From contig CAYSBJ010000003.1 in the NCBI GenBank assembly GCA_964429275.1, positions 129,337-193,336 of the forward strand: 64,000 bases of DNA. The letters run 5' to 3'. Of this stretch, positions 954 through 42,155 are shown one piece after another. Every line of letters begins with the position of its first letter. Positions within the stretch are counted from its first letter, which is position 1. Both the position numbers and the translations under genes were made by a program. This stretch comes from an uncultured Pseudomonadota bacterium. GTDB taxonomy: Bacteria > Babelota > Babeliae > Babelales > JAUPTZ01. Under the pieces are notes generated by a model. The model worked only from the letters and a program-made list of their open reading frames with translations, did not search any database and was not told where the DNA came from.

Positions 954-976
954 AGTATTTCCTTTCAATAATTCTT

Positions 977-1054
977 GGATTGCCGCGCTTCGCTCGCAAC
1001 CGCCTTCGTTACTAGGGCCTGTCACGCCTGGGCACCTTTGGTGCGGCGGCGGAT
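977..1054. repeat. Palindromic repeat family copy (reverse orientation: arm GGATTGCCGCGCTTCGCTCGCAA plus CCGCC...GGCGGCGGAT module)
   Basis: This is the reverse complement of the module seen at 34836..34913 and 36428..36516 (CATCCGCCGCCGC...AAGGCG.GACA...CGAAGGCGGTTGCGAGCGAAGCGCGGCAATCC). It lies between two SBP paralogs. Confidence 0.7.
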
Positions 1055-4776: not shown

Positions 4777-7038
4777 CTATTCTTTAACAACATTCCCACA
4801 TTCTTTGTCAGGGCACGATAGCGTCTCAACGCCATCCTTTCCTTTGTTCACAATCATGTATGGCTGCGTACCACACTTTGAGCATGGGATCTCTTTAACA
4901 TCGTTAAACACGGCAAACTTACAGTTCGGGTAGCCGGTGCATCCCCAGAAGCTACCGCCACGCCAGGCGCGTTTGGCAATCTGGCTGCCGCATTTTGGGC
5001 AGGCCATTTTGAGTGTTTCTTGATGAATATGCTTACAGGCTGGGTAGCCAGAGCAGGAGATGAATGGGCCATATTTGCCAATACGTTTGACCATTTCTTT
5101 GCTACATTTTGGGCATTTAAGACCGGTGGTCTCTGGTTGTACTGGTTCGTTAGCTGTCAACATAATATTTCCTTGTTCGTCCCTCGTATAATTGCTCGTG
5201 AATGTGCAGTCGGGAAAACCCTCACATCCCACAAACTCGCCACTTCGTCCGAAGCGAATGTAGAGTGCTTTTCCACACTCCGGTTCTGGACAGGTGAGTT
5301 CGGTTTTCTGTGCTTCTTTTTTTCCGGGAGCGCCGCCAAATGCTTCAAGGTCTTTGCTGAATTTCTTGTAGAACTCTAGCAGTACCTTGTCGCGTTCAAT
5401 GGAACCCTCGGCGATTTTATCAAGCGACTGTTCCATGTTCGCGGTAAAGTCGACGTTAATAATATCGGGGAGATGGTGGGTGAGGAGTTTGTTCACCGAG
5501 CGCCCAAGTTCTGAGGGTGAAAACCGCTTGTTATCAACTGTGACGTAATTTCGTTTGATCAAGGTTGAAAGAATGGCGGCATATGTACTTGGACGACCAA
5601 TGTCTTTTTCTTTTAATTCTTTTACCAACGTTGCCTGTGTGTAACGTGCTGGTGGTTTGGTAAAGTGCTGTTTGCCTTCTCCTTTGTTCAGGTTGACTGC
5701 TTTACCGTCGGCAACTGATTTTGGAATGGTGGCTGATTTTTCCTCTTCATCTTCTTCTGCTAAGTAGACGTTCAAGAAGCCGTCGAACATAAGCGTAGAG
5801 CCGGTGGTACGAAATTCGTAGTCGCCGCCTTCAATTTGAACAGTACGTTGAAAAAATTCCGCTGCTTCCATCTGGCTCGCGACAAATCGCTTCCAAATAA
5901 GTTCGTATAACTTTGCTTGCTCGGTGCTCAAGTACGGGCCAACTTTGTCCGGGGTGTGGTTTACATCAATCGGACGAATAGCTTCGTGGGCGTCTTGGGA
6001 AGCCCCTTTCGCTTCGAATTGTCGCTCTTTGCTCGGGAGGTATTTACTGCCAAATGTATTTTTAATGTAACCCCGTACGTCAACCATCGCGGTTTCAGAA
6101 ATACGAAGAGAGTCGGTACGCATATAGGTGATAAGCGCTTCTGGATTGTCTTTATCGCGAAGGGGTAAACCTTCGTAGAGCTTTTGCGCTATTTGCATAG
6201 TGCGGTCAACCGAAAAACCAAGTTTATTAAATGCGTCTTGCTGAAGCGAGCTGGTCATAAACGGTGGCGCCGGTTGTTTCAGGCGCTTTTTGTCGGTGAC
6301 TTTGCTGATGGTATACGATGTTCCTTGCAGCTTGGCGATGATGGCATCGGCCCCTTCTTTGGTCGTAAGGTCCGGTTTTTTGCCTTTAATACGGGCAAGT
6401 TCTGCTTCGAATGTTTCACCGTCAATTACGAAAATACCGTGAATCGACCAGTATTCTTCTACTTTAAAGGCAACAATTTCATCTTCTCGCAAGCAGACCA
6501 GCATCAGGCCAACTGATTGCACGCGGCCAGCGGAGAGCCCCTTGGTAATTTTTTTCCATAAGATAGGGGATACCTCATAGCCTACCCAACGGTCAAGAAC
6601 CCGGCGGGCTTGTTGTGCATGCACTTTGTTTTCATCAATACTACGTTTGTCGGCAATAGCCTTTTCAACCGCGGGCTTGGTGATTTCGTTAAACGTTATA
6701 CGGTGAATAAGGCCTTTTTTGAGAACTTTTTCAATTTCTTGGCCGATGTGCCACGAAATGATTTCTCCTTCACGGTCAGGGTCAGAGGCCAAAAAGACTT
6801 CGTCGCAGGTGCGTGCTTGCTTGCAGATTTGGGAAATCGTATCGGCTTTATCTTCTAGCGGAACGTATTCGAGGTCAATATGGTTTTCCGGGGTTATGGT
6901 AACGCCAAGTTTATGTGGTGGCAAATCTTTGACATGGCCAAAGGTGGACATGATTTTGAATTCCTTGCCCAAAAACTTTCCAATCGTCTTGATTTTGGCA
7001 GGCGATTCAACAATAAGGAGTTTTGGCATGTATGGCAC
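4777..7038 (-). CDS. topA: DNA topoisomerase I
   Basis: 753 aa. It has an N-terminal TOPRIM (LLIVESPAKIKTIGKFLG), the active-site motif ITYMRTDS, and four C-terminal CxxC...CxxC zinc ribbons. Confidence 0.95.
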   Translation of the reverse strand: MPYMPKLLIVESPAKIKTIGKFLGKEFKIMSTFGHVKDLPPHKLGVTITPENHIDLEYVPLEDKADTISQICKQARTCDEVFLASDPDREGEIISWHIGQEIEKVLKKGLIHRITFNEITKPAVEKAIADKRSIDENKVHAQQARRVLDRWVGYEVSPILWKKITKGLSAGRVQSVGLMLVCLREDEIVAFKVEEYWSIHGIFVIDGETFEAELARIKGKKPDLTTKEGADAIIAKLQGTSYTISKVTDKKRLKQPAPPFMTSSLQQDAFNKLGFSVDRTMQIAQKLYEGLPLRDKDNPEALITYMRTDSLRISETAMVDVRGYIKNTFGSKYLPSKERQFEAKGASQDAHEAIRPIDVNHTPDKVGPYLSTEQAKLYELIWKRFVASQMEAAEFFQRTVQIEGGDYEFRTTGSTLMFDGFLNVYLAEEDEEEKSATIPKSVADGKAVNLNKGEGKQHFTKPPARYTQATLVKELKEKDIGRPSTYAAILSTLIKRNYVTVDNKRFSPSELGRSVNKLLTHHLPDIINVDFTANMEQSLDKIAEGSIERDKVLLEFYKKFSKDLEAFGGAPGKKEAQKTELTCPEPECGKALYIRFGRSGEFVGCEGFPDCTFTSNYTRDEQGNIMLTANEPVQPETTGLKCPKCSKEMVKRIGKYGPFISCSGYPACKHIHQETLKMACPKCGSQIAKRAWRGGSFWGCTGYPNCKFAVFNDVKEIPCSKCGTQPYMIVNKGKDGVETLSCPDKECGNVVKE

Positions 7039-7247: not shown

Positions 7248-9347
7248 ATGTTCTACCTACGAGGCTTGTTAATCAGGTGTTTAGTCTTGGTTGGCTGTAT
7301 TTTTGTTTCTCTTCAGGCGGGCTTTGTCGAAAAAACCATTTCGGTAGTAGTTCAACAAGCACCAGTCGCTAATGCATCGGGAGTCTCTGCAGCGCGAGCT
7401 CCTTCTACTAAAACGATCACAGTAGGTGAGCTTTCTCTTTTTTCTCTTCGCCGTACTTCATTTTTGCTGTCGGGGTCGCAAGCTCCTGCTGCATTTATTG
7501 CACCTTATTATTATGCTACTACCGTTACTTACTATAATCAGGATGGAACTCAGTTTAAAATTGATGGAAAGCCGCTTACGGCAATTGCCTTTCTCGCGAT
7601 TGCTTATAAGGATGGGGCGTGGATGGACGTCAGTGGAGTACCGATAGACGGTAATGGGGTGCGCCGATTTCCATTCGGTATTGCTGCTAAATTTTCTGAT
7701 GATGCGGGGAAGATACCTTGGATGCAAGCCCTTTTTGGACCAATTCAATTGGATGCTTCTATGACTACTGCTTGTATGTTCGGGACGACTATTAAGCAAA
7801 CGGCCTTCTTGCCTGGAGATTCAGGAATATTTGCTAGGCTAGCTCGCATTTACCCGTTATCCGCTTTTGATTTGGAGATTTTAACAAGACCAGCCTTATT
7901 TTTTACACCCGAGGGAAGGTTGCTTGAGTCGATATGTACCGTGCCAGGAGATTTTTCTGAAGATCCTATTCCCGCAGACTTAGAGGTTTTGTCCTGGGGA
8001 AAAAATACTCTTCCGTCACTTAACGTTGATCTTGATTCTTCTTCCTCTTCTTCTACAGTTGAACTCCAAATTGCTATTCAGAGTGGGGATCCTAAGCCTT
8101 CGTATGTAAAATATAACATCCCCAAGGCTTCGGTGTATCAGGTGATGAAGCCATTTCCGTTTACGACTCCTGCTGGGAAAGTCAGTACAGTACGACAGTA
8201 TTATGCAAGCACCTTGTCCAATAACCAGATTGCTGTTGGTCCAGACCGTGGGCTGCCGCCATTTCAGTCCATGACATCTTTTTTTTGTGATATGCAGTTG
8301 TTTGACTATTATCTCAAGCTACCGAATGAATCTCCGGAAAGGGGGGCTCTATTTGTTGCATTACAGCAAAATGGCCCTGGACAATTTATTACAGCCCCGG
8401 TTACGGGCTGGTCGGCTAAGTTGAGCGCTGATTCTTCACAAATTTTAATTCAAGGGCACCCTTTGCTAAAGAAAGAAGGGCTTGCGCAGATGTATGTCTT
8501 GACTAGTTTAAAAGGCTCTCTTGCTGGCGGGTGCTCTTCTTTAAAGTGGAACCGGCCATTAATGGATTTTCAACAGTACTATTCCCTTTTGGGTAGTGAT
8601 GCAGCCGCAGACATTAGCAAAAAACAGAGCCTTTACCAGCAAATGCAGAGCCAGTATGTTGCAACGTGTGCAGTTGTAGCCGCAACAGAGCAATTTTTTG
8701 GCGGACAGGTTGCTTTTAATGTACGTTCACTCGATCAAATAGATACAATAACCCAAGGGCAAATCCAAGCAAATCCCCTATCGCTTGTGAGTTTTTGGGG
8801 AAATGCTCTCTATGGGAATGCGGGAGGTAAAATGCCCGCGGTGCTTCAAGATGGAAGCAAGACACCGGATGCACAAAAACAATGGGTCAACCCAGAAAAA
8901 ATGGGTGGCATGGTGCAAGTACGGTTTACAACAGTAAACCCTTCTATTGCGTATGATGGTGTGATGATTTTTCCTTCGTGGGTAGCTGCCGGTGGAGTAC
9001 CCTATTACCGTACTGATTTGATCTCTTCGGTTGCCCAGTTTTGGTTTATTCCTTCGGCTGGGATTGTTACTCAGCTTGCATTAACGTTTGATGCTACAAC
9101 AATTACCGGGGCAACAATTGCTACTGCGGATCAGGTCAAAAAACTTGCGGTTGGGACAAGTAATCCACTGAAAGCTTTTGCTGAGAAAGCAAATGATTTT
9201 TGGGGGTTAATCCCTTCGGCTGCTCCAGCTCAGGCAAAGAAGCAGGGGCTGAGTGATCTCCAGAAGACGCAGATAGGCTTAGGTGCTGGATTGGGTGTTG
9301 CGGGGCTTTTCGGTGCATACCAGATGTACAAGCGTTACCAAGATTAG
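7248..9347 (+). CDS. Hypothetical large exported or tail-anchored protein
   Basis: The long ORF runs 7215..9347, and the likely ATG is at 7248 (MFYLRGLLIRCLVLVGCIFVSLQAG, signal or TM). It contains a poly-Ser tract and a C-terminal hydrophobic segment, IGLGAGLGVAGLFGAYQMYKRYQD. I recognise no family. Confidence 0.55.
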   Translation: MFYLRGLLIRCLVLVGCIFVSLQAGFVEKTISVVVQQAPVANASGVSAARAPSTKTITVGELSLFSLRRTSFLLSGSQAPAAFIAPYYYATTVTYYNQDGTQFKIDGKPLTAIAFLAIAYKDGAWMDVSGVPIDGNGVRRFPFGIAAKFSDDAGKIPWMQALFGPIQLDASMTTACMFGTTIKQTAFLPGDSGIFARLARIYPLSAFDLEILTRPALFFTPEGRLLESICTVPGDFSEDPIPADLEVLSWGKNTLPSLNVDLDSSSSSSTVELQIAIQSGDPKPSYVKYNIPKASVYQVMKPFPFTTPAGKVSTVRQYYASTLSNNQIAVGPDRGLPPFQSMTSFFCDMQLFDYYLKLPNESPERGALFVALQQNGPGQFITAPVTGWSAKLSADSSQILIQGHPLLKKEGLAQMYVLTSLKGSLAGGCSSLKWNRPLMDFQQYYSLLGSDAAADISKKQSLYQQMQSQYVATCAVVAATEQFFGGQVAFNVRSLDQIDTITQGQIQANPLSLVSFWGNALYGNAGGKMPAVLQDGSKTPDAQKQWVNPEKMGGMVQVRFTTVNPSIAYDGVMIFPSWVAAGGVPYYRTDLISSVAQFWFIPSAGIVTQLALTFDATTITGATIATADQVKKLAVGTSNPLKAFAEKANDFWGLIPSAAPAQAKKQGLSDLQKTQIGLGAGLGVAGLFGAYQMYKRYQD

Positions 9348-21361: not shown

Positions 21362-21397
21362 AATGAGGGGTAACAATGCTTTGTATGCAGTTTAGCT

Positions 21398-21472
21398 GGA
21401 TTGCTTCGTCACTACGTTCCTCGCAAAAACGGCTTTCGCCGTCGCGTCATTGCGGGCGTAGCGCTGCAATCC
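21398..21472. repeat. Palindromic repeat family copy between batB and batC
   Basis: GGATTGCTTCGTCACTACGTTCCTCGCAA, then the hairpin ACGGCTTTCGCCGT, then CGTCATTGCGGGCGTAGCGCTGCAATCC. This is two arms in inverted orientation. Confidence 0.75.
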
Positions 21473-21474
21473 AT

Positions 21475-22590
21475 ATGAGTTTTTCTATATTATTTTTTCT
21501 AGTCTTTTTTATTGGCAGCGCGCACGCAAGCACGGCTCATTTCTTAGCAGAGCAGCTTGATAATCCGCTGAACCCGGTTACGAGCTATAATCTTGGTATT
21601 GCTGCTTTAGAGCAAAAACAGTATCCAGCAGCAGAGCGACATTTTTCATTGGCTGTTGATCTGTACGATCGCCAAAGTAATGCCATTGTGCCAGCCTATT
21701 TTTGTTGGGCAGATACAGCGGCGTTACAACTTTTGGGGATGCTGCATGAGCAAAAAGAGCTCAAGGGTGAAGCGTTAAATACCGCTATTAAGCGTGCGGT
21801 TGATGCGAGTAACCGTTACGGGAACGTATTAGTCTTTGATGCCGAACATCAAGCTGCTCGCGAACGTAAAAAAATTGTCGATCGCTTGCGTGCGCTTCTG
21901 GAGCAGCGTAAAAAGCAGCAGGAAGAGGAGAAGAAGCAGGAGCAGCAAGATAAGCAAGACAAGCAAAAAGGCGAGGATAAAAAAGATAAGAAAGATAAGT
22001 CAGAGCAGGACGAGCAGGATAAATCCCAAGATGAGAATCAACAGGGAGATGGTGAGCAAGACCAGCAGCAAAATGACGGCAAGGACTCTCAGGACGGTAA
22101 AGAAAACAAAAAAAATAAGCAAGGGGCCGATAAGAATAAGCAGTCAGGCACAGACCAGCAAAAGCAGACGAGCTCAGGTAAGGAGCGCAAGGAAGAAAAG
22201 CCTGGCAATGAAGAAAAAAAGCAATCTGGCCAGGAAGAAGAGGGCCAGGGAGCTGATGAGAAAGAGCAGTCTGCTGGTGCTGACAAAACCGAAGAAGAGA
22301 AGCCCGGCGATCAAGCACAGGGTATCGGCAATAGAGAAGATGAGCAGAAGCAGCAGCCGGCCGTAGGTGCGGCTGATGAAAATGTTTCTTCTGAGGAATC
22401 GCCACAAAATGGCCAGGAGATGGCTATTGCCGCGCCGCAGGAGTATGACGCAAATGCTGAAATGGTAAAAAAACGTGCACTTGTGCTTTTGGATCGCCTG
22501 CAACAAAATGAGGCTGCCTTGCAAAAAGAGCAGCTGCTTAAGAAAAGTGCTGCGCAGGTTGGTGAGAACAAACGCTATAATCAGTGGTAA
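21475..22590 (+). CDS. batC: BatC-like TPR protein with a long K/E/Q/D-rich low-complexity region
   Basis: ORF 21376..22590 begins inside the repeat, so the likely real start is MSFSILFFLVFFIGSAHAST at 21475 (signal peptide). A TPR-like segment is followed by about 170 aa of KKQQEEEKKQEQQDKQDK-type sequence. Confidence 0.55.
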   Translation: MSFSILFFLVFFIGSAHASTAHFLAEQLDNPLNPVTSYNLGIAALEQKQYPAAERHFSLAVDLYDRQSNAIVPAYFCWADTAALQLLGMLHEQKELKGEALNTAIKRAVDASNRYGNVLVFDAEHQAARERKKIVDRLRALLEQRKKQQEEEKKQEQQDKQDKQKGEDKKDKKDKSEQDEQDKSQDENQQGDGEQDQQQNDGKDSQDGKENKKNKQGADKNKQSGTDQQKQTSSGKERKEEKPGNEEKKQSGQEEEGQGADEKEQSAGADKTEEEKPGDQAQGIGNREDEQKQQPAVGAADENVSSEESPQNGQEMAIAAPQEYDANAEMVKKRALVLLDRLQQNEAALQKEQLLKKSAAQVGENKRYNQW

Positions 22591-22602
22591 AAATACGAGG
22601 AA

Positions 22603-24366
22603 ATGATGAATAAATATGCAAGTAAGCTGATTATTTTTGCGGTTTTGATAACGCACATGTCTGCAGTAAGCGCCGGGCTGCGGTTGCTGGTAAAAGGTGG
22701 GCTGCAAGGACGGCAGGAAGATACGGGCAATCCCGTTATGGTTATGTGCCAAGGGGATGATTATATTTTGCAGGTAGTGCGTGATGATGGTGATTTGGGC
22801 CAGGTTGCAATCTATGGAGCGCAGGACAGCGACAATTTTGAGCTGACACGTGGTGGCACCTCAAATAGCATGATTATGGAAAATGGACGGAGTACTTCCT
22901 CCGTAACGAATACTTACTACTTACGGCCATTGAAGGTGGGGACATTTAAACTGGGGCCAGCGGCTCTCGATGAGAATGGGCAGCAAATTGTGAGCAATGC
23001 GGTAGAAGTACGAGTTGTTGAGCCCGCAGCGTATGATCAATTTGCGGGTAAGCGCGGGGCTGCGCGGCAAGCGTTGGCCTGTTCTATTGATGTTGATACT
23101 CATGAAGTCTATGTTGGCCAACCGGTTACATTGACTGTTGTGATGGAAGATAACGGTCAGGTTATGGAGCGCGGGTTACAGCCGCCAGCTTTTGGTAAGA
23201 TGCAAGCGCAACAAGTAGGGAATCCAACGTCCTCACAAAAAGTGGTGAATGGGCAGCTTAAAGTGCTGACGCAGCAGGTCTATAGCTTGAGTGCTGATGT
23301 GCCAGGAACATATACCGTTGGGCCAGCAACCGGGGTCTTTGTTGTGCCAGAAAATGATAATCACGATCCATTTGCTGGTGGGCTCTGGGGAGGCTTTTTT
23401 GGGCCGCAGGGCAAAAAGCGTAGTGTGCGATCTAATAGTACAATCATTGCGGTTAAGCCCCTGCCGCTGAGCAAAATCCCTGTTGATGGTGTTGGCCAGT
23501 TTACGGGAGTAGCATTGCGCGCTGACAAACAGATTGTAGAGCTAAACGAACCAATTATGGTGACGTTTGCTGTTATAGGACGAGGCAACTTTGATGCAAT
23601 TACTGCGCCGACGTTACAGCTTCCAGAAACGATGGAAGTGTATCCGTCAACTGCTTCCTTTTCCCCTGACTTAGCGACGCCGCAAAAAGGGGTAAAGTCG
23701 TTTGAGTATGTGGTGCAGATTGGGGAGCCCGGGGTGCATGAAATTCCAGCACAGCGTTTTACCTACTTTGATACACAGGAGGGAGAGTACATAACTCTTT
23801 CTACTGATCCGGTGACGGTACAGGTCCGAAAGGCAAAGATTATCGCAACTGATCAGCCGGTAGAGCCTGTGGGGAAGGAATCAAAAGAGAAAAAACCTGA
23901 AGCACCAAAGATATATGATGGTGCTTCATTGCCTGTGATCCCGTGGTGGTGGGTCGTTTATTTTGCGCTGGCCATATTCTTTATTCTTATGCGTGATCTT
24001 TTGGTTCGTGGTGTATGGGAGCTGGTTGAATTTTTGGGCATAACCTCAGATACAAAGCGGCAGCGAGCTCGCCTACTTGTGCTTATCGATGCGCAGGAAG
24101 TGGGACAAATTCATGCCTTCTTTATTAAGTTTCTGGCACGTGCATGGGGTTGCGATACTGAGCAGATTGATGCGGAATACGTAAAGAGTCGCACTGCAGA
24201 TTGGGGCTGGGACATGGAGCACAGTGAAGGGTTTGCCGATTATATTGATCGGTGTAGTCAGGCTGCGTTTGCTCAACAGATGATGAAAGAGGCGGTAAAA
24301 ACTGAATTACTTGATAAAACACTGTATTGGTATGAGATGGTGGTGGCGCAGTTGAGTCAAAAGTAG
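22603..24366 (+). CDS. batD: BatD-like exported protein with a C-terminal TM
   Basis: 587 aa with a signal-like N-terminus and a late TM (IPWWWVVYFALAIFFILM). Its size and its position after batABC match BatD-type proteins. Confidence 0.5.
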   Translation: MMNKYASKLIIFAVLITHMSAVSAGLRLLVKGGLQGRQEDTGNPVMVMCQGDDYILQVVRDDGDLGQVAIYGAQDSDNFELTRGGTSNSMIMENGRSTSSVTNTYYLRPLKVGTFKLGPAALDENGQQIVSNAVEVRVVEPAAYDQFAGKRGAARQALACSIDVDTHEVYVGQPVTLTVVMEDNGQVMERGLQPPAFGKMQAQQVGNPTSSQKVVNGQLKVLTQQVYSLSADVPGTYTVGPATGVFVVPENDNHDPFAGGLWGGFFGPQGKKRSVRSNSTIIAVKPLPLSKIPVDGVGQFTGVALRADKQIVELNEPIMVTFAVIGRGNFDAITAPTLQLPETMEVYPSTASFSPDLATPQKGVKSFEYVVQIGEPGVHEIPAQRFTYFDTQEGEYITLSTDPVTVQVRKAKIIATDQPVEPVGKESKEKKPEAPKIYDGASLPVIPWWWVVYFALAIFFILMRDLLVRGVWELVEFLGITSDTKRQRARLLVLIDAQEVGQIHAFFIKFLARAWGCDTEQIDAEYVKSRTADWGWDMEHSEGFADYIDRCSQAAFAQQMMKEAVKTELLDKTLYWYEMVVAQLSQK

Positions 24367-24460
24367 GTGCGGCGAAGGCGGGCGTAGCGCGGCAATCGGG
24401 TCTGATTGGACGTATCGAAGTACTCTCGATTGCTTCGTCGCACATGCTTCTCGCAATGAC
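24367..24460. repeat. Palindromic repeat family copy between batD and batE
   Basis: GCGGGCGTAGCGCGGCAATCG ... spacer ... CGATTGCTTCGTCGCACATGCTTCTCGCAATGAC. Confidence 0.7.
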
Positions 24461-24480
24461 ATTAAACAAGCGAGGTTAAA

Positions 24481-34785: not shown

Positions 34786-34819
34786 CCCTTTTTACAACGA
34801 ATGTAGTTTAAAACATCAA

Positions 34820-34988
34820 GACCCGTCTTGCGGGTCATCCGCCGCCGCCCCTTTGGGGGCTAAGGCGAGACACGCTGTAGTCTCGAAGGCGGTTGCGAGC
34901 GAAGCGCGGCAATCCAGATTGTATGTAATATATCTAGGCAATTTTCTGCATTGCTTCGTTTCTCGCGATGACGACAGCTAACGCTGTC
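34820..34988. repeat. Full composite copy of the palindromic repeat family
   Basis: The order is: hairpin GACCCGTCTTGCGGGTC; CATCCGCCGCCGCCCCTTTGGGGGCTAAGGCGAGACACGC...CGAAGGCGGTTGCGAGCGAAGCGCGGCAATCC; spacer; CATTGCTTCGTTTCTCGCGATGAC; hairpin GACAGCTAACGCTGTC. Confidence 0.75.
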
Positions 34989-34994
34989 TCTCTT

Positions 34995-36350
34995 TCACCC
35001 TACCGGGAAAAGTTTTAAGAGTTGGTACACATTCTTGAATCGTTGGACATTGCTCCCGCTGGGGCATTGTTGCTCTTCTGAGACAAAAATGGTTTTGAGG
35101 CCGAAAGTATTGGCTTCTTTGATGCGTGATTCTACATAGCTTATTGGCTTAATGTGCCCGGTGAGGCTGATCTCTCCCAAGGCTACCGATTTTTCCGGGA
35201 GCGGGTGCTGAAAGAAGGAAGATAGCAGTGCTAAGGCGATTGCCAGGTCGCTTGCGCTTTCTTTGATGGAGCAGCCGCCGCTAACTTTAAAGAAGATATC
35301 CACACCGCTGAGGCCGACTTGCAGGTATTTTTCTAAAATGGCAGCGATGAGTGCTACGCGCTTCGGGTCAACCCCCGTTACAATGCGCTGAGGCATGGCA
35401 AATTTCGTTGGTACGCAGAGCGCCTGGAGTTCCAGGAGCAACGGTCGTGTGCCCTCAATGCTGCACGTTAGCGCGGAGCCGGGTGCGTGGGTGGCCTGGC
35501 TGAGCAGGTGGGCGTTAATATTTTGTACAGGCTGCAGGCCGCTCGGGGCCATTTCAAAAAAGCCAAGCTCATCAATGGTGCCAAAACGGTTTTTAACGGC
35601 GCGCAACATGCGCACTTGCCAGCGGTCCTCTCCCTGGAGGTAGAACACGCCGTCAACGATATGTTCAAGTAACTTTGGCCCAGCCATTTGCCCCTCTTTG
35701 GTAATGTGGCCGGTCACAATGACGGTAATGGTATGTTTTTTGGCCAGGGTCATGAGGAGAAAGCCGGCATATTTGAGGTGGCTTATGGAGCCAGGAACCG
35801 TTTGGCGGTCATCGTCTTGTACGATGCAGTTTTGAATGGAATCGATAATGAGGATGGCCGGTTTTTCCGCTTGGCCGGTGGCGATGATGGCTGCTAGGTC
35901 GGCACAGTCTGAAAAGCGCAGGCGCGGCGATGAAGTGATGCCAAGGCGGATGCCTCGTTGTTTGAGCTGGCTGCCGGATTCTTCAGAGGAAAAATAGAGC
36001 ACATCGTGCGACTGGGCCAGCGCTGCCGCTACTTGGAGGAGGAGGGTTGATTTTCCGATGCCGGGGTCGCCCGTTACGATGAGAAACGCGCCGGGCATAA
36101 GGCCGCCATCTCCCATGACGCGGTCCCATTCTTTGATGCCGCTTTGATAGCGTTCAATACGATTGTGGCCGCTTAATTCATCGAGCGGCACGACTGGGGT
36201 TGTTGCGGCCGCTGCACCAGTTGTCTGGCTTGCGGATGCTGAGTACGGTTCAAAAGAGTTCCAGGTTTTGCATTCCGGGCAACAACCGGCCCATTTTACG
36301 GCGATGTGGCCGCAGGTTGTGCATTTGTGTTGTGCGTTGTTTTTGGCCAT
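34995..36350 (-). CDS. radA: DNA repair protein RadA
   Basis: N-terminal zinc finger CTTCGH...CCPECKTW, Walker A GDPGIGKSTLLLQ, the KNRFG motif, and a Lon-protease-like C-terminal domain. Confidence 0.95.
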   Translation of the reverse strand: MAKNNAQHKCTTCGHIAVKWAGCCPECKTWNSFEPYSASASQTTGAAAATTPVVPLDELSGHNRIERYQSGIKEWDRVMGDGGLMPGAFLIVTGDPGIGKSTLLLQVAAALAQSHDVLYFSSEESGSQLKQRGIRLGITSSPRLRFSDCADLAAIIATGQAEKPAILIIDSIQNCIVQDDDRQTVPGSISHLKYAGFLLMTLAKKHTITVIVTGHITKEGQMAGPKLLEHIVDGVFYLQGEDRWQVRMLRAVKNRFGTIDELGFFEMAPSGLQPVQNINAHLLSQATHAPGSALTCSIEGTRPLLLELQALCVPTKFAMPQRIVTGVDPKRVALIAAILEKYLQVGLSGVDIFFKVSGGCSIKESASDLAIALALLSSFFQHPLPEKSVALGEISLTGHIKPISYVESRIKEANTFGLKTIFVSEEQQCPSGSNVQRFKNVYQLLKLFPVG

Positions 36351-36427
36351 GGGTTCCCCGTTTTTGCTTTGTTTTTATGTGGATTGCTATTTTTGTGTTT
36401 CTTCTATGGATTATAGACGGCTGACAG

Positions 36428-36605
36428 CCATCATCCGCCGCCGCACCTCTGGTGCTAAGGCGTGACACGCCGAAGTATCGAAGGCGGTTGCGAGGAACGT
36501 AGTGACGTGGCAATCTATTCTTACAATTGTTTTCTATTTTTACAATCTACATGGATTGCTTCGTCGGCTTCGCCTTCTCGCAATGACGCGCTTTTTGGGC
36601 GCGTC
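36428..36605. repeat. Repeat array unit 1 (CCGCC module, arm A, spacer, arm B, hairpin)
   Basis: CATCATCCGCCGCCGCACC...CGAAGGCGGTTGCGAGGAACGTAGTGACGTGGCAATCT; a 36-nt spacer; GGATTGCTTCGTCGGCTTCGCCTTCTCGCAATGAC; hairpin GACGCGCTTTTTGGGCGCGTC. Confidence 0.8.
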
Positions 36606-36662
36606 TGGATGAATTTTTAGGGAAGCCCACTCGTTACTGCGTGCTTCTTGTCTGAGTTATAT

Positions 36663-36792
36663 GACGGCGTTTAGCCGTCTTTGCGAGCGTAGCGCGGCAA
36701 TCCATTCTTATACTTGGTTTCTATTCTTACAATCTACATGGATTGCTTCGTCGGCTTCGCCTTCTCGCAATGACGTGCTCCAAGGACACGTC
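36663..36792. repeat. Repeat array unit 2 (short, MITE-like)
   Basis: Hairpin GACGGCGTTTAGCCGTC; TTTGCGAGCGTAGCGCGGCAATCC; spacer ATTCTTATACTTGGTTTCTATTCTTACAATCTACAT; GGATTGCTTCGTCGGCTTCGCCTTCTCGCAATGAC; hairpin GACGTGCTCCAAGGACACGTC. Confidence 0.85.
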
Positions 36793-36825
36793 TGTAGAAT
36801 ACTATGATTTTTTTTGTTTTTTATA

Positions 36826-37258
36826 GACGACGGAGTCGTCATTGCGAGGAACGTAGTGACGTGGCAATCCATCTTATATTCTCACTCATCCTACAATACT
36901 ATCAAACAAGTCATGCCATTCTGGATTGAAAGAAGTTATAAGGTCAACTTTCTTTTGACGAGAGCCTCCTTTGATTGCTTTCTCGCGCTCAATAGCACTT
37001 TTCATAGATGGACATTGTTCGTAGTAAACTAAAAGAGTACAACCATAGCGGGAGGTAAAACCTTTCTTGGGAAGGCCTTCTCTGTGTTGATACACTCGTT
37101 TTATGAGATTAGAGGTGACGCCGGTGTAGAGCGTACCGTTCTTTTGGTTAGTCATTATATAAACGACTGGGATTTTGGTCATTTGGTTATTACGTTTTTA
37201 TATGCTTTTACATGGATTGCTTCGCGGTGCTCGCAATGACGCGCTTTTTGGGCGCGTC
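36826..37258 (-). mobile_element. Candidate autonomous element: GIY-YIG nuclease gene bracketed by repeat arms A and B and their flanking hairpins
   Basis: Hairpin GACGACGGAGTCGTC, then arm A ATTGCGAGGAACGTAGTGACGTGGCAATCC (36841..36870), then a 343-bp core carrying ORF 36886..37182. Arm B GGATTGCTTCGCGGTGCTCGCAATGAC (37214..37240) and hairpin GACGCGCTTTTTGGGCGCGTC follow. The outer 11-bp inverted repeat is GTCATTGCGAG / CTCGCAATGAC. Confidence 0.55.
36886..37182 (-). CDS. Small GIY-YIG nuclease family protein (COG2827 / YhbQ-UPF0213-like)
   Basis: 98 aa: VVYIMTNQKNGTLYTGVTSNLIKRVYQHREG...YGCTLLVYYEQ...AIEREKAIKGGSRQKKVDLI. It has the GIY...YxG, R, H and E motifs. Confidence 0.85.
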   Translation of the reverse strand: MTKIPVVYIMTNQKNGTLYTGVTSNLIKRVYQHREGLPKKGFTSRYGCTLLVYYEQCPSMKSAIEREKAIKGGSRQKKVDLITSFNPEWHDLFDSIVG

Positions 37259-37285
37259 TGAATGAATACTATGACTTTTTTTATA

Positions 37286-37407
37286 GACGACGGAGTCGTC
37301 ATTGCGAGCGTAGCGCGGCAATCCATTCTTATACTTGGTTTCTATCTTTACAGCTTACATGGATTGCTTCGTCGGCTTTGCCTTCTCGCAATGACGACTT
37401 CGTCGTC
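37286..37407. repeat. Repeat array unit 4 (short, MITE-like)
   Basis: Hairpin GACGACGGAGTCGTC; ATTGCGAGCGTAGCGCGGCAATCC; spacer ATTCTTATACTTGGTTTCTATCTTTACAGCTTACAT; GGATTGCTTCGTCGGCTTTGCCTTCTCGCAATGAC; hairpin GACGACTTCGTCGTC. Confidence 0.85.
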
Positions 37408-37442
37408 CATAAAGGCTATGGGAATAATTTTAGTGTTACGTA

Positions 37443-37487
37443 AACGCGCGGTGAAGCGCGTCTTTGCGAGCGTAGCGCGGCAATCCA
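37443..37487. repeat. Solo arm A with hairpin, abutting the tdk stop
   Basis: ACGCGCGGTGAAGCGCGT followed by CTTTGCGAGCGTAGCGCGGCAATCC. No partner arm B is present. Confidence 0.7.
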
Positions 37488-37499
37488 TTCTATTCAGAC

Positions 37500-38117
37500 T
37501 TACCCCTGCCTTTGCAGCTCCTGCGCTTTTTTTGCATAAAAATCGACTGGGCGGTTAATGGAAAAACAGGTGCGGCATCGGGCTTCGTAGGAATCTTCTG
37601 CGCCGACTTGAATGAGTGGGTCATGCCAGTCAGCCGGTTTGCCGTTGACCAAGCGTTGCGTCCAGCGGGCGTCTTTGCCACATTGCATGCAAATAGCAGA
37701 AAGCTTATGCACGCTGTCAGCAAGGGTCATGAGGTGTGGCATAATGCCAAATGGCTGGCCGCGAAAATCGGTGTCCAGGCCGGCAGCGATAACGCGTACG
37801 CCGCGATCAACCAGCTCTTCGATAACGCTGAGAATATCGAGCGGGAAAAATTGTACTTCGTCGATGGCTACTACTTCAATGTCGAGAGGAATAGCAGCGC
37901 GCATGCTTTCTACATCATCAGCAGCGGCGGCTTCTAAAACGCGGCCAGCATGCGAATTGATGCAGGCGGTGTGAACCCGATTGTCGATACGGTGCTTGAT
38001 AGTAATAACTGCTTGCTTTGCATATTCAGCGCGGCGGACCAGGCGCATCAGCTCTTCGGTTTTGCCGGAAAACATGCAGCCGGCTACCACCTCGAGGGAG
38101 CCTTTTCTAGATTTCAT
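37500..38117 (-). CDS. tdk: Thymidine kinase (copy B)
   Basis: P-loop GCMFSGKTEEL, IDEVQFF, and zinc-ribbon cysteines CMQCG...CRTC. Its start ATG overlaps the stop of the upstream tdk (ATGA). Confidence 0.9.
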   Translation of the reverse strand: MKSRKGSLEVVAGCMFSGKTEELMRLVRRAEYAKQAVITIKHRIDNRVHTACINSHAGRVLEAAAADDVESMRAAIPLDIEVVAIDEVQFFPLDILSVIEELVDRGVRVIAAGLDTDFRGQPFGIMPHLMTLADSVHKLSAICMQCGKDARWTQRLVNGKPADWHDPLIQVGAEDSYEARCRTCFSINRPVDFYAKKAQELQRQG

Positions 38118-38752
38118 AAAAATATCCTTTGTTCTGGTCTTCTTTCTATGACAAAGCAGCTACGACAGCGGGGTTCATACGTTTCGGCTGCGCCGACAAG
38201 CATGAGCGGATCGTCATATTTTGCCGGTTCGCCGTTTACAATGCGCTGTGAGTAGTGGGAATTTTTGCCGCAGGCACCGCAGATCGCGTTGAGCTTGGTT
38301 ACGCTGTCGGCTAATGCCATGACCGTGGGCATAACGCCAAACGGTTCGCCGCGAAAATCAAGGTCAAGGCCGGCAACAACAACACGTTTGCCTTGTTCAA
38401 CCAAGCTGACGATAACTGGTACAATTTCTTTAGGGAAAAACTGGAGTTCGTCGATGCCAATAACGTCAATGGCGGGCGATGCGAGGTTTAAAATCTTTCG
38501 AATGCCTTGTGGCGTATTGTCGATGGGGTGTGCAGAGCGCTCTTGGCCATCGTGAGAGAGGATGCATTGGTGGTGTGCACGTGAATCAATGAGGTGCTTG
38601 ATAGTAAGAACTGTTTGCTTTGCAAATTCAGCGCGACGAAGACGTCGCATAAGTTCTTCTGTCTTACCAGAAAACATTGATCCGCAAATTACTTCAAGGC
38701 GGCCCGGGCTTTTTTTTGCCGGTACATATACGGCGTCGCGTGTGTCGGTCAT
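38114..38752 (-). CDS. tdk: Thymidine kinase (copy A)
   Basis: The ORF runs 38114..38854, and the likely start is MTDTRDAVY at 38752. Motifs GSMFSGKTEEL, IDELQFF and CGACG...CRSC are present. Confidence 0.9.
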   Translation of the reverse strand: MTDTRDAVYVPAKKSPGRLEVICGSMFSGKTEELMRRLRRAEFAKQTVLTIKHLIDSRAHHQCILSHDGQERSAHPIDNTPQGIRKILNLASPAIDVIGIDELQFFPKEIVPVIVSLVEQGKRVVVAGLDLDFRGEPFGVMPTVMALADSVTKLNAICGACGKNSHYSQRIVNGEPAKYDDPLMLVGAAETYEPRCRSCFVIERRPEQRIFL

Positions 38753-38893
38753 ATCGGTATCCCTGTTCTGAGAGTAGAGGAAAAACACTGAGGTGATAAC
38801 GACCTTGGGGTCATCATCGGCGCGTAGTCTATTCGAGAAACCCTTCCAAGGCAATGCTCTTGCCCCGAAAAAAGGGGCGACCTCGGAGGCATT

Positions 38894-41104: not shown

Positions 41105-41189
41105 GGGGAGATTCCCGAGCGGCCAAAGGGGACGGACTGTAAATCCGTTGGCTACGCCTTCACAGGTTCGAATCCTGTTCTCCCCACCA
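41105..41189 (+). tRNA. tRNA-Tyr (anticodon GTA), long variable arm
   Basis: Acceptor GGGGAGA/TCTCCCC, anticodon loop CTGTAAA, T-loop TTCGAAT, encoded CCA. Confidence 0.9.
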
Positions 41190-41361
41190 TTCGCCTTCGC
41201 TGCACTGTTGCTCGTCAAGCGAGCAACGACAGGCAGGCTGCGGCGTAACTGTGGCCCCAAAGGCACAGTAAAAATTGTGTCACCGTAGCATCTAACTGTC
41301 GTCAGTGCATCGCGAGCCGAAAGGTGAGCTGCGACGGCAAAGTGGTCGCTAAAAAAAATTC

Positions 41362-41438
41362 GCGGGAATAGCTCAATTGGCTAGAGCGACAGCCTTCCAA
41401 GCTGTAGGTTGCGGGTTCGAGTCCCGTTTCCCGCTCCA
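41362..41438 (+). tRNA. tRNA-Gly (anticodon TCC)
   Basis: Acceptor GCGGGAA/TTCCCGC, anticodon loop CTTCCAA, T-loop TTCGAGT, encoded CCA. Confidence 0.9.
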
Positions 41439-41518
41439 TTTGCCTCCGCACACGGATAAAACCGTGTGTCTACGGCGTAAGTTGGTCTCAAAGTACACGC
41501 AGATACTAAAAAATAGGC

Positions 41519-41594
41519 GCCGGCATAGCTCAGTTGGTAGAGCAACTGATTTGTAATCAGTAGGTCGCGGGTTCAAGTCCTGCTGCCGGCTCCA
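41519..41594 (+). tRNA. tRNA-Thr (anticodon TGT)
   Basis: Acceptor GCCGGCA/TGCCGGC, anticodon loop TTTGTAA, T-loop TTCAAGT, encoded CCA. Confidence 0.9.
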
Positions 41595-41967
41595 TCTTTC
41601 GCCTTTATGGCGCCGCAAGGCACGCCATAAAGAGACTTCAGCTGGTAGGCCATCCTTTTCGGGTGGGTTGTCGCTGAAAGCTGCGAAGTTGGGTCCTGGG
41701 GTTCCAGGAACTAAGAAGCCGTATGTGCTTTCTCTCAGCCGATCAAAGGCTAAGGGTGCATGCGAGCTCAGTTGCTTATGGTTCTCGCAAGAGAATCTGG
41801 GTAACGTCATTAAGGAAGACAGTAAAAGAAGCCGGAGGCGAGTAGCCGATAAAAAGTACGGTTCGTGTTTGCCTTTTTTGATAAATCATTTTATGATTGC
41901 TCATCACAGGTCTTATTCGAATCAGTTTTTCTCGGTTGCCGAGGCGGTTTTATGATTAAAGTATTAC

Positions 41968-42043
41968 GCCCACGTAGCTCAGTTGGCAGAGCACTTCCTT
42001 GGTAAGGGAGAGGTCACCGGTTCGAGTCCGGTCGCGGGCTCCA
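41968..42043 (+). tRNA. tRNA-Thr (anticodon GGT)
   Basis: Acceptor GCCCACG/CGCGGGC (one A:C mismatch), anticodon loop TTGGTAA, T-loop TTCGAGT, encoded CCA. Confidence 0.85.
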
Positions 42044-42079
42044 GATTTTGGTGGGGGTCAAATTCGTGGATAAGGCTGT

Positions 42080-42155
42080 AGGTCAGTAGCTCCAATGGTA
42101 GAGCAGCGGACTCCAAATCCGCGTGTTGGGGGTTCGAGTCCCTCCTGGCCTGCCA
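42080..42155 (+). tRNA. tRNA-Trp (anticodon CCA)
   Basis: Acceptor AGGTCAG/CTGGCCT, anticodon loop CTCCAAA, T-loop TTCGAGT, encoded CCA. It sits immediately upstream of secE, as in many bacteria. Confidence 0.9.

Follow-up and report, generated by a model that had tools for sequence, protein, structure and literature searches.

A GIY-YIG nuclease gene among CGTC-tagged hairpin repeats of a Candidatus Dependentiae genome, very probably a variant Ssn locus

The spacer between radA and tdk of a Candidatus Dependentiae genome was analysed within a stretch of 64,000 nucleotides (the window) of a 211-kb contig. The spacer contains nine modules of the form CGTC(A/T)TTGCGAG-N9..17-GCAATCCAT, arranged as four inverted doublets and one solo arm (Table 1). 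Five modules are on the + strand (at 36488, 36676, 36837, 37297 and 37459) and four on the - strand (at 36551-36588, 36738-36775, 37212-37241 and 37359-37396). The motif TTGCGAG-N10..18-GCAATC was matched 7 times in the window, against 0.02 matches expected from shuffles. An earlier note on this DNA had counted five copies of a composite unit, which is close; the count obtained here was four doublets, the solo arm and a truncated remnant. The intact 98-aa GIY-YIG ORF that it had placed inside one long-core copy was confirmed by ORF calling and a Pfam match.

Table 1. Genes, repeat modules and tag hairpins in the window.
Feature	Position	Strand	Basis or detail
radA	34995-36350	-	Boundary gene of array
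tdk	37500-38117	-	Other boundary gene of array
ssn gene, single-domain GIY-YIG nuclease, 98 aa	36886..37182	-	ORF call, Pfam
Truncated module remnant (..GCAATCCACATA) by radA start	36376..36395	-	Repeat-family comparison
Gene-less doublet 1	36483..36588	.	+ arm 36488-36515, 38-nt spacer, - arm 36551-36588
Gene-less doublet 2	36676..36775	.	Short + arm, 38-nt spacer, long - arm
Gene-bearing doublet	36837..37241	.	345-bp core around GIY-YIG ORF
Module downstream of ssn gene, long class, CGTCATTGCGAG-GAACGTAGTGACGTG-GCAATCCAT	36837..36872	+	ssDNA fold
Module upstream of ssn gene, short class, CGTCATTGCGAG-CACCGCGAA-GCAATCCAT	37212..37241	-	ssDNA fold
Gene-less doublet 3	37297..37396	.	Short + arm, 38-nt spacer, long - arm
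Solo module adjoining tdk	37459..37488	+	Module search and comparison with relatives
Tag hairpin GACGAC-GGA-GTCGTC, pairs CGTC tag	36826..36840	+	Fold
Other tag hairpins	36585-36605, 36664-36679, 36772-36794, 37238-37258, 37286-37300, 37393-37407, ~37448-37462		Fold
Dispersed solo module	975..1004	-	Tag displaced by nested repeat at 1000-1052
Dispersed pair, tags face to face	21396..21474	.	- arm 21396-21431, + arm 21445-21474
Dispersed doublet	24371..24461	.	Degenerate + arm ~24371-24400, - arm 24425-24461
Dispersed doublet, ~205 bp, between radA stop and radA terminator	34795..35002	.	Arms 34893-34914 (+) and 34949-34968 (-)

In the gene-bearing doublet, the downstream module lies 13 nt from the ssn stop codon and the upstream module ends 29 nt before the ssn ATG. 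Both begin with CGTCA and are inverted on the two sides of the gene, which is the layout of the Ssn family. The tag of the + arm of doublet 1 is displaced by a nested repeat. Doublet 3 together with its tag hairpins (37286-37410) folds as ssDNA into one long hairpin (-34 kcal/mol, z=-8.2). The linkers between the array doublets are duplicated as well (32 nt at 100%, 38 nt at 97% and 19 nt at 95%), and the steps of the array are regular, at 161-162 nt. A promoter and terminator scan of the array gave counts near the shuffle level, with no convincing promoter upstream of the ssn gene inside the unit. Rfam scans of the window returned tRNAs only at the gathering threshold and chance microRNA-like matches only under permissive settings. 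The repeat family is dispersed beyond the region covered by the earlier note, with further modules at 978, 21399, 21450, ~24376, 24428, 34893 and 34949. Besides the four doublets of the array, the window holds three further pairs. Every module is intergenic (between ORFs), and several lie directly 3' of stop codons.

Modules have the form CGTC-ATTGCGAG-(variable mini-hairpin)-GCAAT-CCA and were computed to fold as ssDNA: an outer stem of 5 bp leads through an internal loop to an inner stem of 3-4 bp, which is capped by a loop of 3-4 nt, and the inner segment measures 9-17 nt. The consensus of 311 instances was C81 G95 T95 C97 A92, then TTGCGAG..GCAATC, then C84 A86 G74, where the T after A92 was fixed by the search motif. 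The third pair of the outer stem covaries, being T-A in 283 instances, C-G in 16, G-C in 9 and A-T in 1, with only 3 mismatches. The variable GAC..GTC mini-hairpins described in the earlier note are real: CGTC is paired into a tag hairpin of variable sequence in seven of the eight tagged modules of the window, and in 20/236 modules in other loci.

The 98-aa protein matched Pfam PF01541 (E=3e-16, residues 6-78) and no other domain. It was 54% identical over 93 aa to the SsnA orthologue of N. gonorrhoeae (94 aa; tblastn E=4e-24 against 7.3 Gb, pairwise blastp E=2e-36). This orthologue, taken from a chromosome filed as a plasmid, was used as the SsnA reference; the characterised SsnA is that of N. 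meningitidis. With this reference, the protein falls within the homology threshold of Chenal et al. (2025), E < 1e-10 to Neisseria SsnA. Residues Y8, Y19 and E67 align with the catalytic Y6, Y17 and E64 of the orthologue, whose gene is set among 16 NTS copies, and are invariant in 24 homologues. The only hit in NCBIfam was TIGR01453, a model for group I intron endonucleases, and this match was weak and below the cutoff (E=0.0011). The protein had been described as YhbQ-type GIY-YIG; the fold assignment stands, while 'YhbQ-type' is imprecise, given the identity to Neisseria SsnA and the weak matches of the solved UPF0213 structures with the family profile (PDB 1zg2 and 1ywl, E=3e-6 and 1e-3). 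The closest homologue (83% identical) has a different gene neighbourhood.

Linkage of gene and hairpins was assessed at 80 loci of the closest homologues, with 81 genes from many phyla. The exact core arm motif was present <=150 nt from the gene in 69 of the 81, which bears out the proposal that gene and arms belong together. Up to 500 nt from the gene there were ~2.8 modules per kb, and beyond that distance ~0.1 per kb (>20-fold); the hairpin class of the window is the dominant one around these homologues. Arm-gene-arm was the commonest layout (25/81). A simple model in which the gene is the cargo of a doublet was rejected as a general one, because 11/81 genes lie between two doublets and not inside one. 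At locus L007, two paralogues 54% identical to each other are present, one with the ATTGCGAG class on its flanks, the other with SRMs of the published type. Among 19 homologous loci on viral contigs, only one had the present hairpin class beside the gene, which gives no evidence for a phage route.

The pairing of such a nuclease with CGTC hairpins, which the earlier note took to be undescribed for this nuclease family, was published in 2025 as the Ssn family, a family of small GIY-YIG proteins whose genes are flanked by NTS/SRM hairpins (Chenal et al., Nat Commun 2025; PMC11893778). The finding in the window is therefore a rediscovery. Chenal et al. assigned the family with CDD model cd10448 (GIY-YIG_unchar_3), noted the NTS-ssnA-NTS layout and drew an analogy to IS200, REP and BIME elements; the nuclease as mobiliser of the repeats was raised in that paper only as a hypothesis. 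The comparison with REP/RAYT systems made in the earlier note is apt. For both binding and cutting, SsnA accepts only ssDNA, and only one of the strands, with the cut just upstream of the hairpin; RNA is not bound. Cutting depends most on the three nucleotides that precede the stem, and binding on the C that follows it (PMC11893778). Characterised members do not cut dsDNA, and the only function shown, in Neisseria, is modulation of natural transformation (PMC11893778).

The window locus is very probably an Ssn locus, with a predicted small single-domain GIY-YIG ssDNA endonuclease encoded among its cognate CGTC-tagged hairpins of the NTS/SRM type. CGTCATT...AATCCAG is common to the modules and the NTS sequence CGTCATTCCCGCGMAVGCGGGAATCYRG. 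The locus is a further Ssn example with a variant hairpin and not a new kind of system; new are the Dependentiae host, a hairpin class outside the published pattern, and a relative at ~90% identity without the array and without the 205-bp doublet. The published SRM pattern, HGTCWYN(0-2)YYVSBRHN(0-5)WNVSBRGN(0-2)RNCYNB, which is a search tool and not the definition of the family, had 0 matches in the window and 0/316 among instances of the present class (6 with one mismatch allowed), against 9 matches in a Neisseria locus used as positive control. Since the pattern misses this class, specificity must differ in detail from that of published Ssn enzymes, and since the class is dominant around the closest 80 homologues, surveys based on the pattern undercount.

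By homology with SsnA, modules would most likely fold when a DNA strand is exposed in replication, repair or DNA uptake. Each would form the outer stem ATTGC/GCAAT (5 bp), an internal loop that is small and rich in purines (GA on the 5' side, variable on the 3' side) and the variable inner mini-hairpin. The nuclease would bind the hairpin on one strand only, where it would recognise CGTC, unpaired and 5' of the stem, together with the C that follows the stem, and would cut a few nucleotides upstream of the CGTC tag. In the lineage of the window, the predicted cut would lie within the tag-hairpin loop or next to it. Because the arms of a doublet are inverted, one site per strand would be open to cleavage, at the unit's outer edge. 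The specificity for single strands and for one strand, and the cut position, are those we infer from Chenal et al. (2025). In the host, the cut could serve to spread the repeats, to restrict incoming ssDNA or to stimulate recombination.

A fuller version of the Ssn-locus explanation, and not a strict rival to it, is that the nuclease mobilises the repeats in the manner of a REPtron, the gene doublet being autonomous and the gene-less doublets non-autonomous, MITE- or REPIN-like, and spread in trans. We consider this possible but doubtful. That arm-gene-arm is the commonest layout, and that the closest homologue has a different neighbourhood, argue for it, the genes lying between doublets against it. 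GIY-YIG enzymes are hydrolytic and, to our knowledge, do not form covalent intermediates as HUH transposases do, so that rejoining would need host functions. Presence or absence at syntenic sites, a comparison that the earlier note had proposed, gave two differences from the relative at ~90% identity, which lacks both the gene-bearing array of 1,070 bp and the separate 205-bp doublet. Units have been gained or lost between close relatives. The 205-bp doublet is cleanly present in the window, while at the same site in the relative L085 it is missing and the empty site holds no repeat. This difference favours mobilisation, but it may instead be a deletion in the relative, as the comparison had no outgroup, and no target-site duplication could be recognised where the doublet is cleanly inserted. 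The solo module by tdk is also present in L085-L089, with a different inner hairpin, and relatives have a complete module at the site of the truncated remnant.

Likeness of gene-less and gene-bearing units beyond their arms is a further argument for mobilisation. The short units had been read in the earlier note as internal-deletion, MITE-like derivatives of the long one. An ungapped, end-anchored comparison of short spacer and long core was not significant (P ~0.3), while a gapped comparison gave P ~0.002, with the short spacer aligned mostly on the leftmost 32 nt of this core and not on both ends. At the Thiobacillus locus L060, gene-less units have both ends in common with the gene unit. 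A systematic comparison of short and long units across loci was partly confounded by nested doublets and a conserved tail. Together these alignments lend modest support to the part of that proposal by which the short units would derive from the long unit by deletion. Mobilisation by the nuclease would also fit the report that no transposase was found for CGTC repeats (Di Nocera et al., 2013; PMC3733652), but the only Ssn function shown is the modulation of natural transformation (PMC11893778).

That published phenotype is in keeping with a nuclease that serves the host, for instance by cutting incoming or exposed ssDNA, and does not move repeats, the radA–tdk array having grown by tandem duplication and unequal crossing-over. 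The duplicated linkers (32, 38 and 19 nt) and the regular steps would be expected from such growth, and recombination between direct repeats could turn the window array into the 200-bp spacer of the relative. Left unexplained are the copies scattered over unrelated sites, the 205-bp doublet cleanly inserted between stop codon and terminator, with its repeat-free empty site, and the bracketing of the gene by its sites across phyla; we regard this account, too, with some scepticism.

If a free-standing homing endonuclease gene had entered repeats that were already there, as its target and not its product, and had copied itself into doublet spacers by break repair, this would account for the resemblance of the long-core ends to the short spacer. 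GIY-YIG is also a classic homing-endonuclease fold, as the weak TIGR01453 match recalls. This is nevertheless quite improbable, as the protein is a single domain without a DNA-binding module, characterised family members do not cut dsDNA (PMC11893778), and the gene is found between doublets as well as inside them. That the hairpins are RNA-level elements (terminators or mRNA stabilisers, roles known for REP-type repeats) with an incidental nuclease gene is hardly credible despite their intergenic positions, several just past stop codons, since chance falls far short of explaining the gene linkage seen in many phyla, SsnA does not bind RNA (PMC11893778) and no Rfam family was matched. The hairpins may have a secondary RNA role.

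The pairing of a small GIY-YIG nuclease with CGTC-tagged repeats answers the question of their enzyme, left by Di Nocera et al. (2013; PMC3733652). Only tentatively would we propose the small GIY-YIG nuclease as the long-missing mobilising enzyme of these REPs, with host repair spreading gene-less doublets, the gene-bearing doublet autonomous, and gene-less doublets, some nested elements and tag hairpins as footprints. The basis for this proposal is the clean insertion polymorphism, the shared unit ends and the cognate nuclease-hairpin pairs, and the two differences from the relative at ~90% identity are concrete sites that bear on unit mobility. Compensatory changes in the outer stem, and paralogues each with their own hairpin class, support co-evolving nuclease-site pairs, which will be relevant if Ssn enzymes become programmable ssDNA cutters.

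Among known systems, the GIY-YIG homing endonucleases (I-TevI and the Seg proteins of phage T4) have the same catalytic fold and genes in selfish-looking DNA, but they have a separate DNA-binding domain and cut dsDNA, whereas the window protein is the catalytic domain alone. The UPF0213/YhbQ proteins (PDB 1zg2, 1ywl) are of similar size, and the COG2827 grouping was that of the earlier note; we know of no hairpin association for them. Literature searches on COG2827, YhbQ and UPF0213 returned nothing relevant, and a search combining GIY-YIG with repetitive extragenic palindromic returned nothing. Set beside MITEs, the short and long window copies have their arms in common, their spacers resemble the ends of the long core only in gapped alignment, and no clear duplication is seen at the clean insertion. 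The REP/RAYT systems (REPtrons, REPINs, BIMEs) also have the gene of an ssDNA-hairpin nuclease flanked by inverted copies of its repeat, many dispersed intergenic gene-less doublets, and a conserved unpaired 4-nt tag beside the stem; the window enzyme is a hydrolytic GIY-YIG protein and not an HUH (Y1) tyrosine transposase, and its tag is CGTC and not GTAG. We know of no strand-transfer chemistry for the GIY-YIG fold.

Judged by their sequence, the window repeats fit most features of the CGTC-tagged REPs, families CGTC-1 to CGTC-4, for which no associated enzyme was found (Di Nocera, De Gregorio and Rocco, BMC Genomics 2013; PMC3733652). They carry an unpaired CGTC tag at the 5' end, their stem opens with A-T followed by T-A and their tail is close to CCA (311 instances), and in the window they are mostly inverted dimers, often of two unlike units, and intergenic. 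The outer stem ATTGC/GCAAT resembles that of CGTC-3, as inferred from the encoded peptide VIAGLDPAIH. Published stems are uninterrupted (8-9 bp, with 4-5-nt loops), and those of NTS are likewise simple, at 8-9 bp, whereas those of the window have a 5-bp outer stem, an internal loop and a variable second stem. The Ssn system differs from that of the window, which is known from sequence alone and belongs to an intracellular Dependentiae bacterium, in the hairpin core (ATTGC-GAG-(variable mini-hairpin)-GCAAT in the window, ATTCCCGCG-loop-CGCGGGAAT in NTS) and in the CGTC tag, usually paired in a tag hairpin in the window lineage and unpaired in the published model. With the Ssn system, represented by N. 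meningitidis SsnA, the window has in common a single-domain GIY-YIG protein of ~94-98 aa with aligned catalytic Y, Y and E, inverted hairpins that bracket the gene and share CGTCATT...AATCC(A/Y)RG, and repeats both dispersed and clustered between genes.

The 1.15-kb spacer between radA and tdk contained nine copies of one module, which reads CGTC(A/T)TTGCGAG-N9..17-GCAATCCAT on its own strand. The modules alternated in strand (five plus, four minus) and were arranged as four inverted doublets with CCA tails inward, a solo arm beside tdk and a truncated remnant beside radA. Three of the four doublets had an AT-rich spacer of 38 nt, and one carried the GIY-YIG ORF. The window had 7 occurrences of the core pattern, where 0.02 were expected. 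The earlier note had described a GIY-YIG gene amid hairpin repeat units at this site, and was confirmed because the modules, the doublets, an intact ORF and the excess over chance were all found. Coordinates are collected in the table. A mechanically called ORF (21376-22590) starts within a module pair (region 21376-21475); translation probably begins at the ATG near 21476 instead, and these modules would then lie between two same-strand genes.

Features of the GIY-YIG locus and its repeats (window coordinates unless a locus is named)
Feature	Position	Strand	Remarks
radA	34995-36350	-	
tdk	37500-38117	-	
Gene-bearing doublet	arms 36837-36872 and 37212-37241		core 345 bp
GIY-YIG ORF	36886-37182	-	intact, 98 aa, within the 345-bp core; Pfam GIY-YIG E=3e-16
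Dispersed modules	978, 21399/21450, 24376/24428, 34893/34949		all intergenic
Tag hairpins	36585-36605, 36664-36679, 36772-36794, 36826-36840, 37238-37258, 37286-37300, 37393-37407		
Second repeat	36435-36487 (+), 34839-34892 (+), 1000-1052 (-)		degenerate trace ~24366-24384; comparison locus L081 ~8975-9035

A search of 5.8 billion proteins yielded over 7,000 homologues, each 95-100 aa long. Aligned homologues from very different bacteria were 61-69% identical to the window protein; one was closer (83%) and lay in another gene neighbourhood. 80 genome loci carrying 81 homologue genes were fetched from Alpha-, Beta- and Gammaproteobacteria, Bacteroidota, Elusimicrobiota, Armatimonadota, Patescibacteria and Babeliales. 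The exact motif TTGCGAG-N6..24-GCAATC was located within 150 nt of 69 of the 81 genes, and most loci without it had compensated variants (ATGGC/GCCAT, ATCGC/GCGAT or ATAGC/GCTAT). Module density was 2.8 per kb up to 500 nt from the gene versus about 0.1 per kb at 1-5 kb. Arm-gene-arm was the commonest layout (25 of the 81 genes), and 11 genes lay between two complete doublets, as in Bradyrhizobium (L043). Gene and hairpins belong together.

Modules were folded as single-stranded DNA, each giving an outer stem (ATTGC/GCAAT), a small purine-rich internal loop (5' GA, 3' variable) and, innermost, a mini-hairpin whose sequence varies and which has either a 3-bp stem and 3-nt loop (GCG-TAG-CGC, GGC-GAA-GCC) or a 4-bp stem and 4-nt loop (ACGT-AGTG-ACGT). 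An entire doublet could also form a single long hairpin (-34 kcal/mol, z=-8.2). The flanks were strongly conserved in the 311 instances gathered from the window and from related loci (C81 G95 T95 C97 A92 before TTGCGAG; C84 A86 G74 after GCAATC). Pair 3 of the outer stem covaried, with T-A in 283 (73 loci), C-G in 16 (9 loci), G-C in 9 (3 loci), A-T in 1 and only 3 mismatches, which is good evidence that the outer stem forms. In the window and in L011, L016, L026, L042, L043, L053 and L054, doublets usually combined a short arm (inner segment of 9 nt, often containing GCGNAGC) with a long one (inner segment of 15-17 nt), so that perfect palindromes are avoided; a preference for unlike dimer partners was also recorded by Di Nocera et al. 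2013 (PMC3733652). Doublets in tandem stepped by a similar 161-167 nt in three unrelated lineages (window 36681/36842/37302/37464; L043 4522-5858; L060 5345-5650), split differently between spacer and linker (38+60, 25+85 and 98+18 nt).

In the window lineage the CGTC tag was itself paired into a mini-hairpin in seven of eight tagged modules, with sequence varying from copy to copy. Such pairing was rare elsewhere (20 of 236 modules of other lineages versus 8 expected). The second repeat of the table, CCGCCGCCGCACC..GGTGC.AAGGCGTGACACGCC..GAAGGCGG, was 53-54 nt long and comprised two small hairpins enclosed by an outer CCGCC/GGCGG stem. In three window modules it sat precisely at the junction of the tag (..TCAT) with TTGCGAG, and in a relative it lay within the loop of an arm; it could be a nested element targeting modules or a module subfamily.

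The earlier note had suggested that the short units are internal-deletion derivatives of the gene-bearing one. When the 38-nt spacers were compared with the long core without gaps and anchored at the ends, the match was not significant; gapped alignment scored above shuffles (P about 0.002), matching the short spacer almost wholly to the core's left 32 nt (16 nt past the stop codon plus the last gene codons) and then to the final CATG. The Thiobacillus locus L060 has gene-less units whose spacer is 98 nt long; these and the gene unit shared about 20 nt at each end. The gapped score and these shared ends indicate that the two kinds of unit are related beyond their arms; the case for derivation by deletion is modest.

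The host was assigned to Candidatus Dependentiae because its RadA shares a cluster, at 90% or more, with a protein bearing this name. Contigs of a relative (L085) had 88-90% nucleotide identity and the same gene order. Both carried two tandem thymidine kinase genes with overlapping ends (the second at 38114-38854, minus strand, in the window), and a region with five clustered tRNA genes (41105-42152) was kept at about 85% identity. The relative's tdk-radA spacer was 200 bp, with an arm at either end and a linker of 80 nt; where the window has 1,070 bp (36389-37458, including the gene), the relative has 118 bp, a difference that could also come from recombination between direct repeats. Linkers were duplicated inside the array too (repeat families D2, D4 and D8), so local tandem duplication contributed to it. 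A cleaner case was window 34795-35002: in the relative the radA stop codon runs straight into its terminator, and in the window the two are separated by a doublet of some 205 bp, tag hairpins included. No clear target duplication was visible there. Either gain in the window lineage or loss in the relative could account for these differences. Both genomes had a module at the tdk-side site (37459-37488; L085 4508-4540), but its inner hairpin class differed, short CGTAGCGCG in the window and long GAACGTAGTGACGAA in the relative, which suggests replacement or gene conversion, not point mutation.

The Ssn family of single-domain GIY-YIG proteins (about 94 aa), nearly coextensive with CDD model cd10448, was described with hairpins flanking its genes, named NTS in Neisseria and SRM generally (Chenal et al., 2025; PMC11893778). 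A gonococcal orthologue of SsnA was taken from an N. gonorrhoeae chromosome filed among plasmids (PLSDB records NZ_CP119140.1 and NZ_CP119142.1, 2.17 Mb, are mislabelled chromosomes). It had 94 aa, with Y6, Y17 and E64 as published (PMC11893778), and 16 NTS copies within 3.3 kb around its gene. The window protein shared 54% identity with it across 93 aa (pairwise E=2e-36), with Y8, Y19 and E67 aligned to its catalytic residues. CGTCATT...AATCCAG is common to the window module and NTS. The published degenerate SRM pattern gave 9 sites on the Neisseria locus, no match in the window and none among 316 instances of the window hairpin class, because the cores differ: NTS has an uninterrupted ATTCCCGCG stem, and the window class has a second stem in addition to ATTGC-GAG. 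The SRM pattern serves for searching and does not define the family; with the SsnA homology and shared flanks the locus was classed as a member of the Ssn family whose cognate hairpin is a variant. One Gammaproteobacteria contig (L007) carried two ssn paralogues, 54% identical (1261-1620 and 4906-5321), each with its own hairpin class, published-type SRMs (ATCCCGC..GCGGGAT) on both sides versus ATTGCGAG..GCAAT, which supports cognate nuclease-hairpin pairing. Their C-terminal motifs were LKEWKRKWK and IKGGSRKKK.

N. meningitidis SsnA binds the hairpin solely as single-stranded DNA and solely on one strand, and cuts a few nucleotides upstream; three pre-stem bases are chief for cutting and a post-stem C for binding (PMC11893778). 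The window locus is very probably an Ssn nuclease with cognate single-stranded hairpin sites, which would cut 5' of the CGTC tag once that strand is exposed; by homology the predicted cut would fall in or beside the tag-hairpin loop. The cut might spread the repeats, as the earlier note proposed, a tentative reading; Chenal et al. themselves liken NTS-ssnA-NTS to an insertion sequence, IS200/IS605, REPs and BIMEs (PMC11893778). Equally tentatively, it might serve the host, the repeats growing by recombination; in the cell, SsnA modulates natural transformation (PMC11893778). Homing on double-stranded DNA and a purely RNA-level role of the hairpins are both unlikely, SsnA acting on neither dsDNA nor RNA (PMC11893778).

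Among known repeats, 'CGTC-tagged REPs' (Di Nocera et al., 2013; PMC3733652) carry an unpaired CGTC tag and a CCA tail, have a stem opening A-T then T-A, occur mostly as inverted dimers, and 'apparently lack a dedicated transposase'. The window repeats fit in tag, tail, stem start and dimers, but not in the uninterrupted 8-9-bp stem. The earlier note knew of no description of such a pairing for this nuclease family; it had already been published as Ssn (Chenal et al., 2025; PMC11893778), and a literature search for later Ssn papers found none. The earlier note had, correctly and with care, rediscovered a system in print since 2025.
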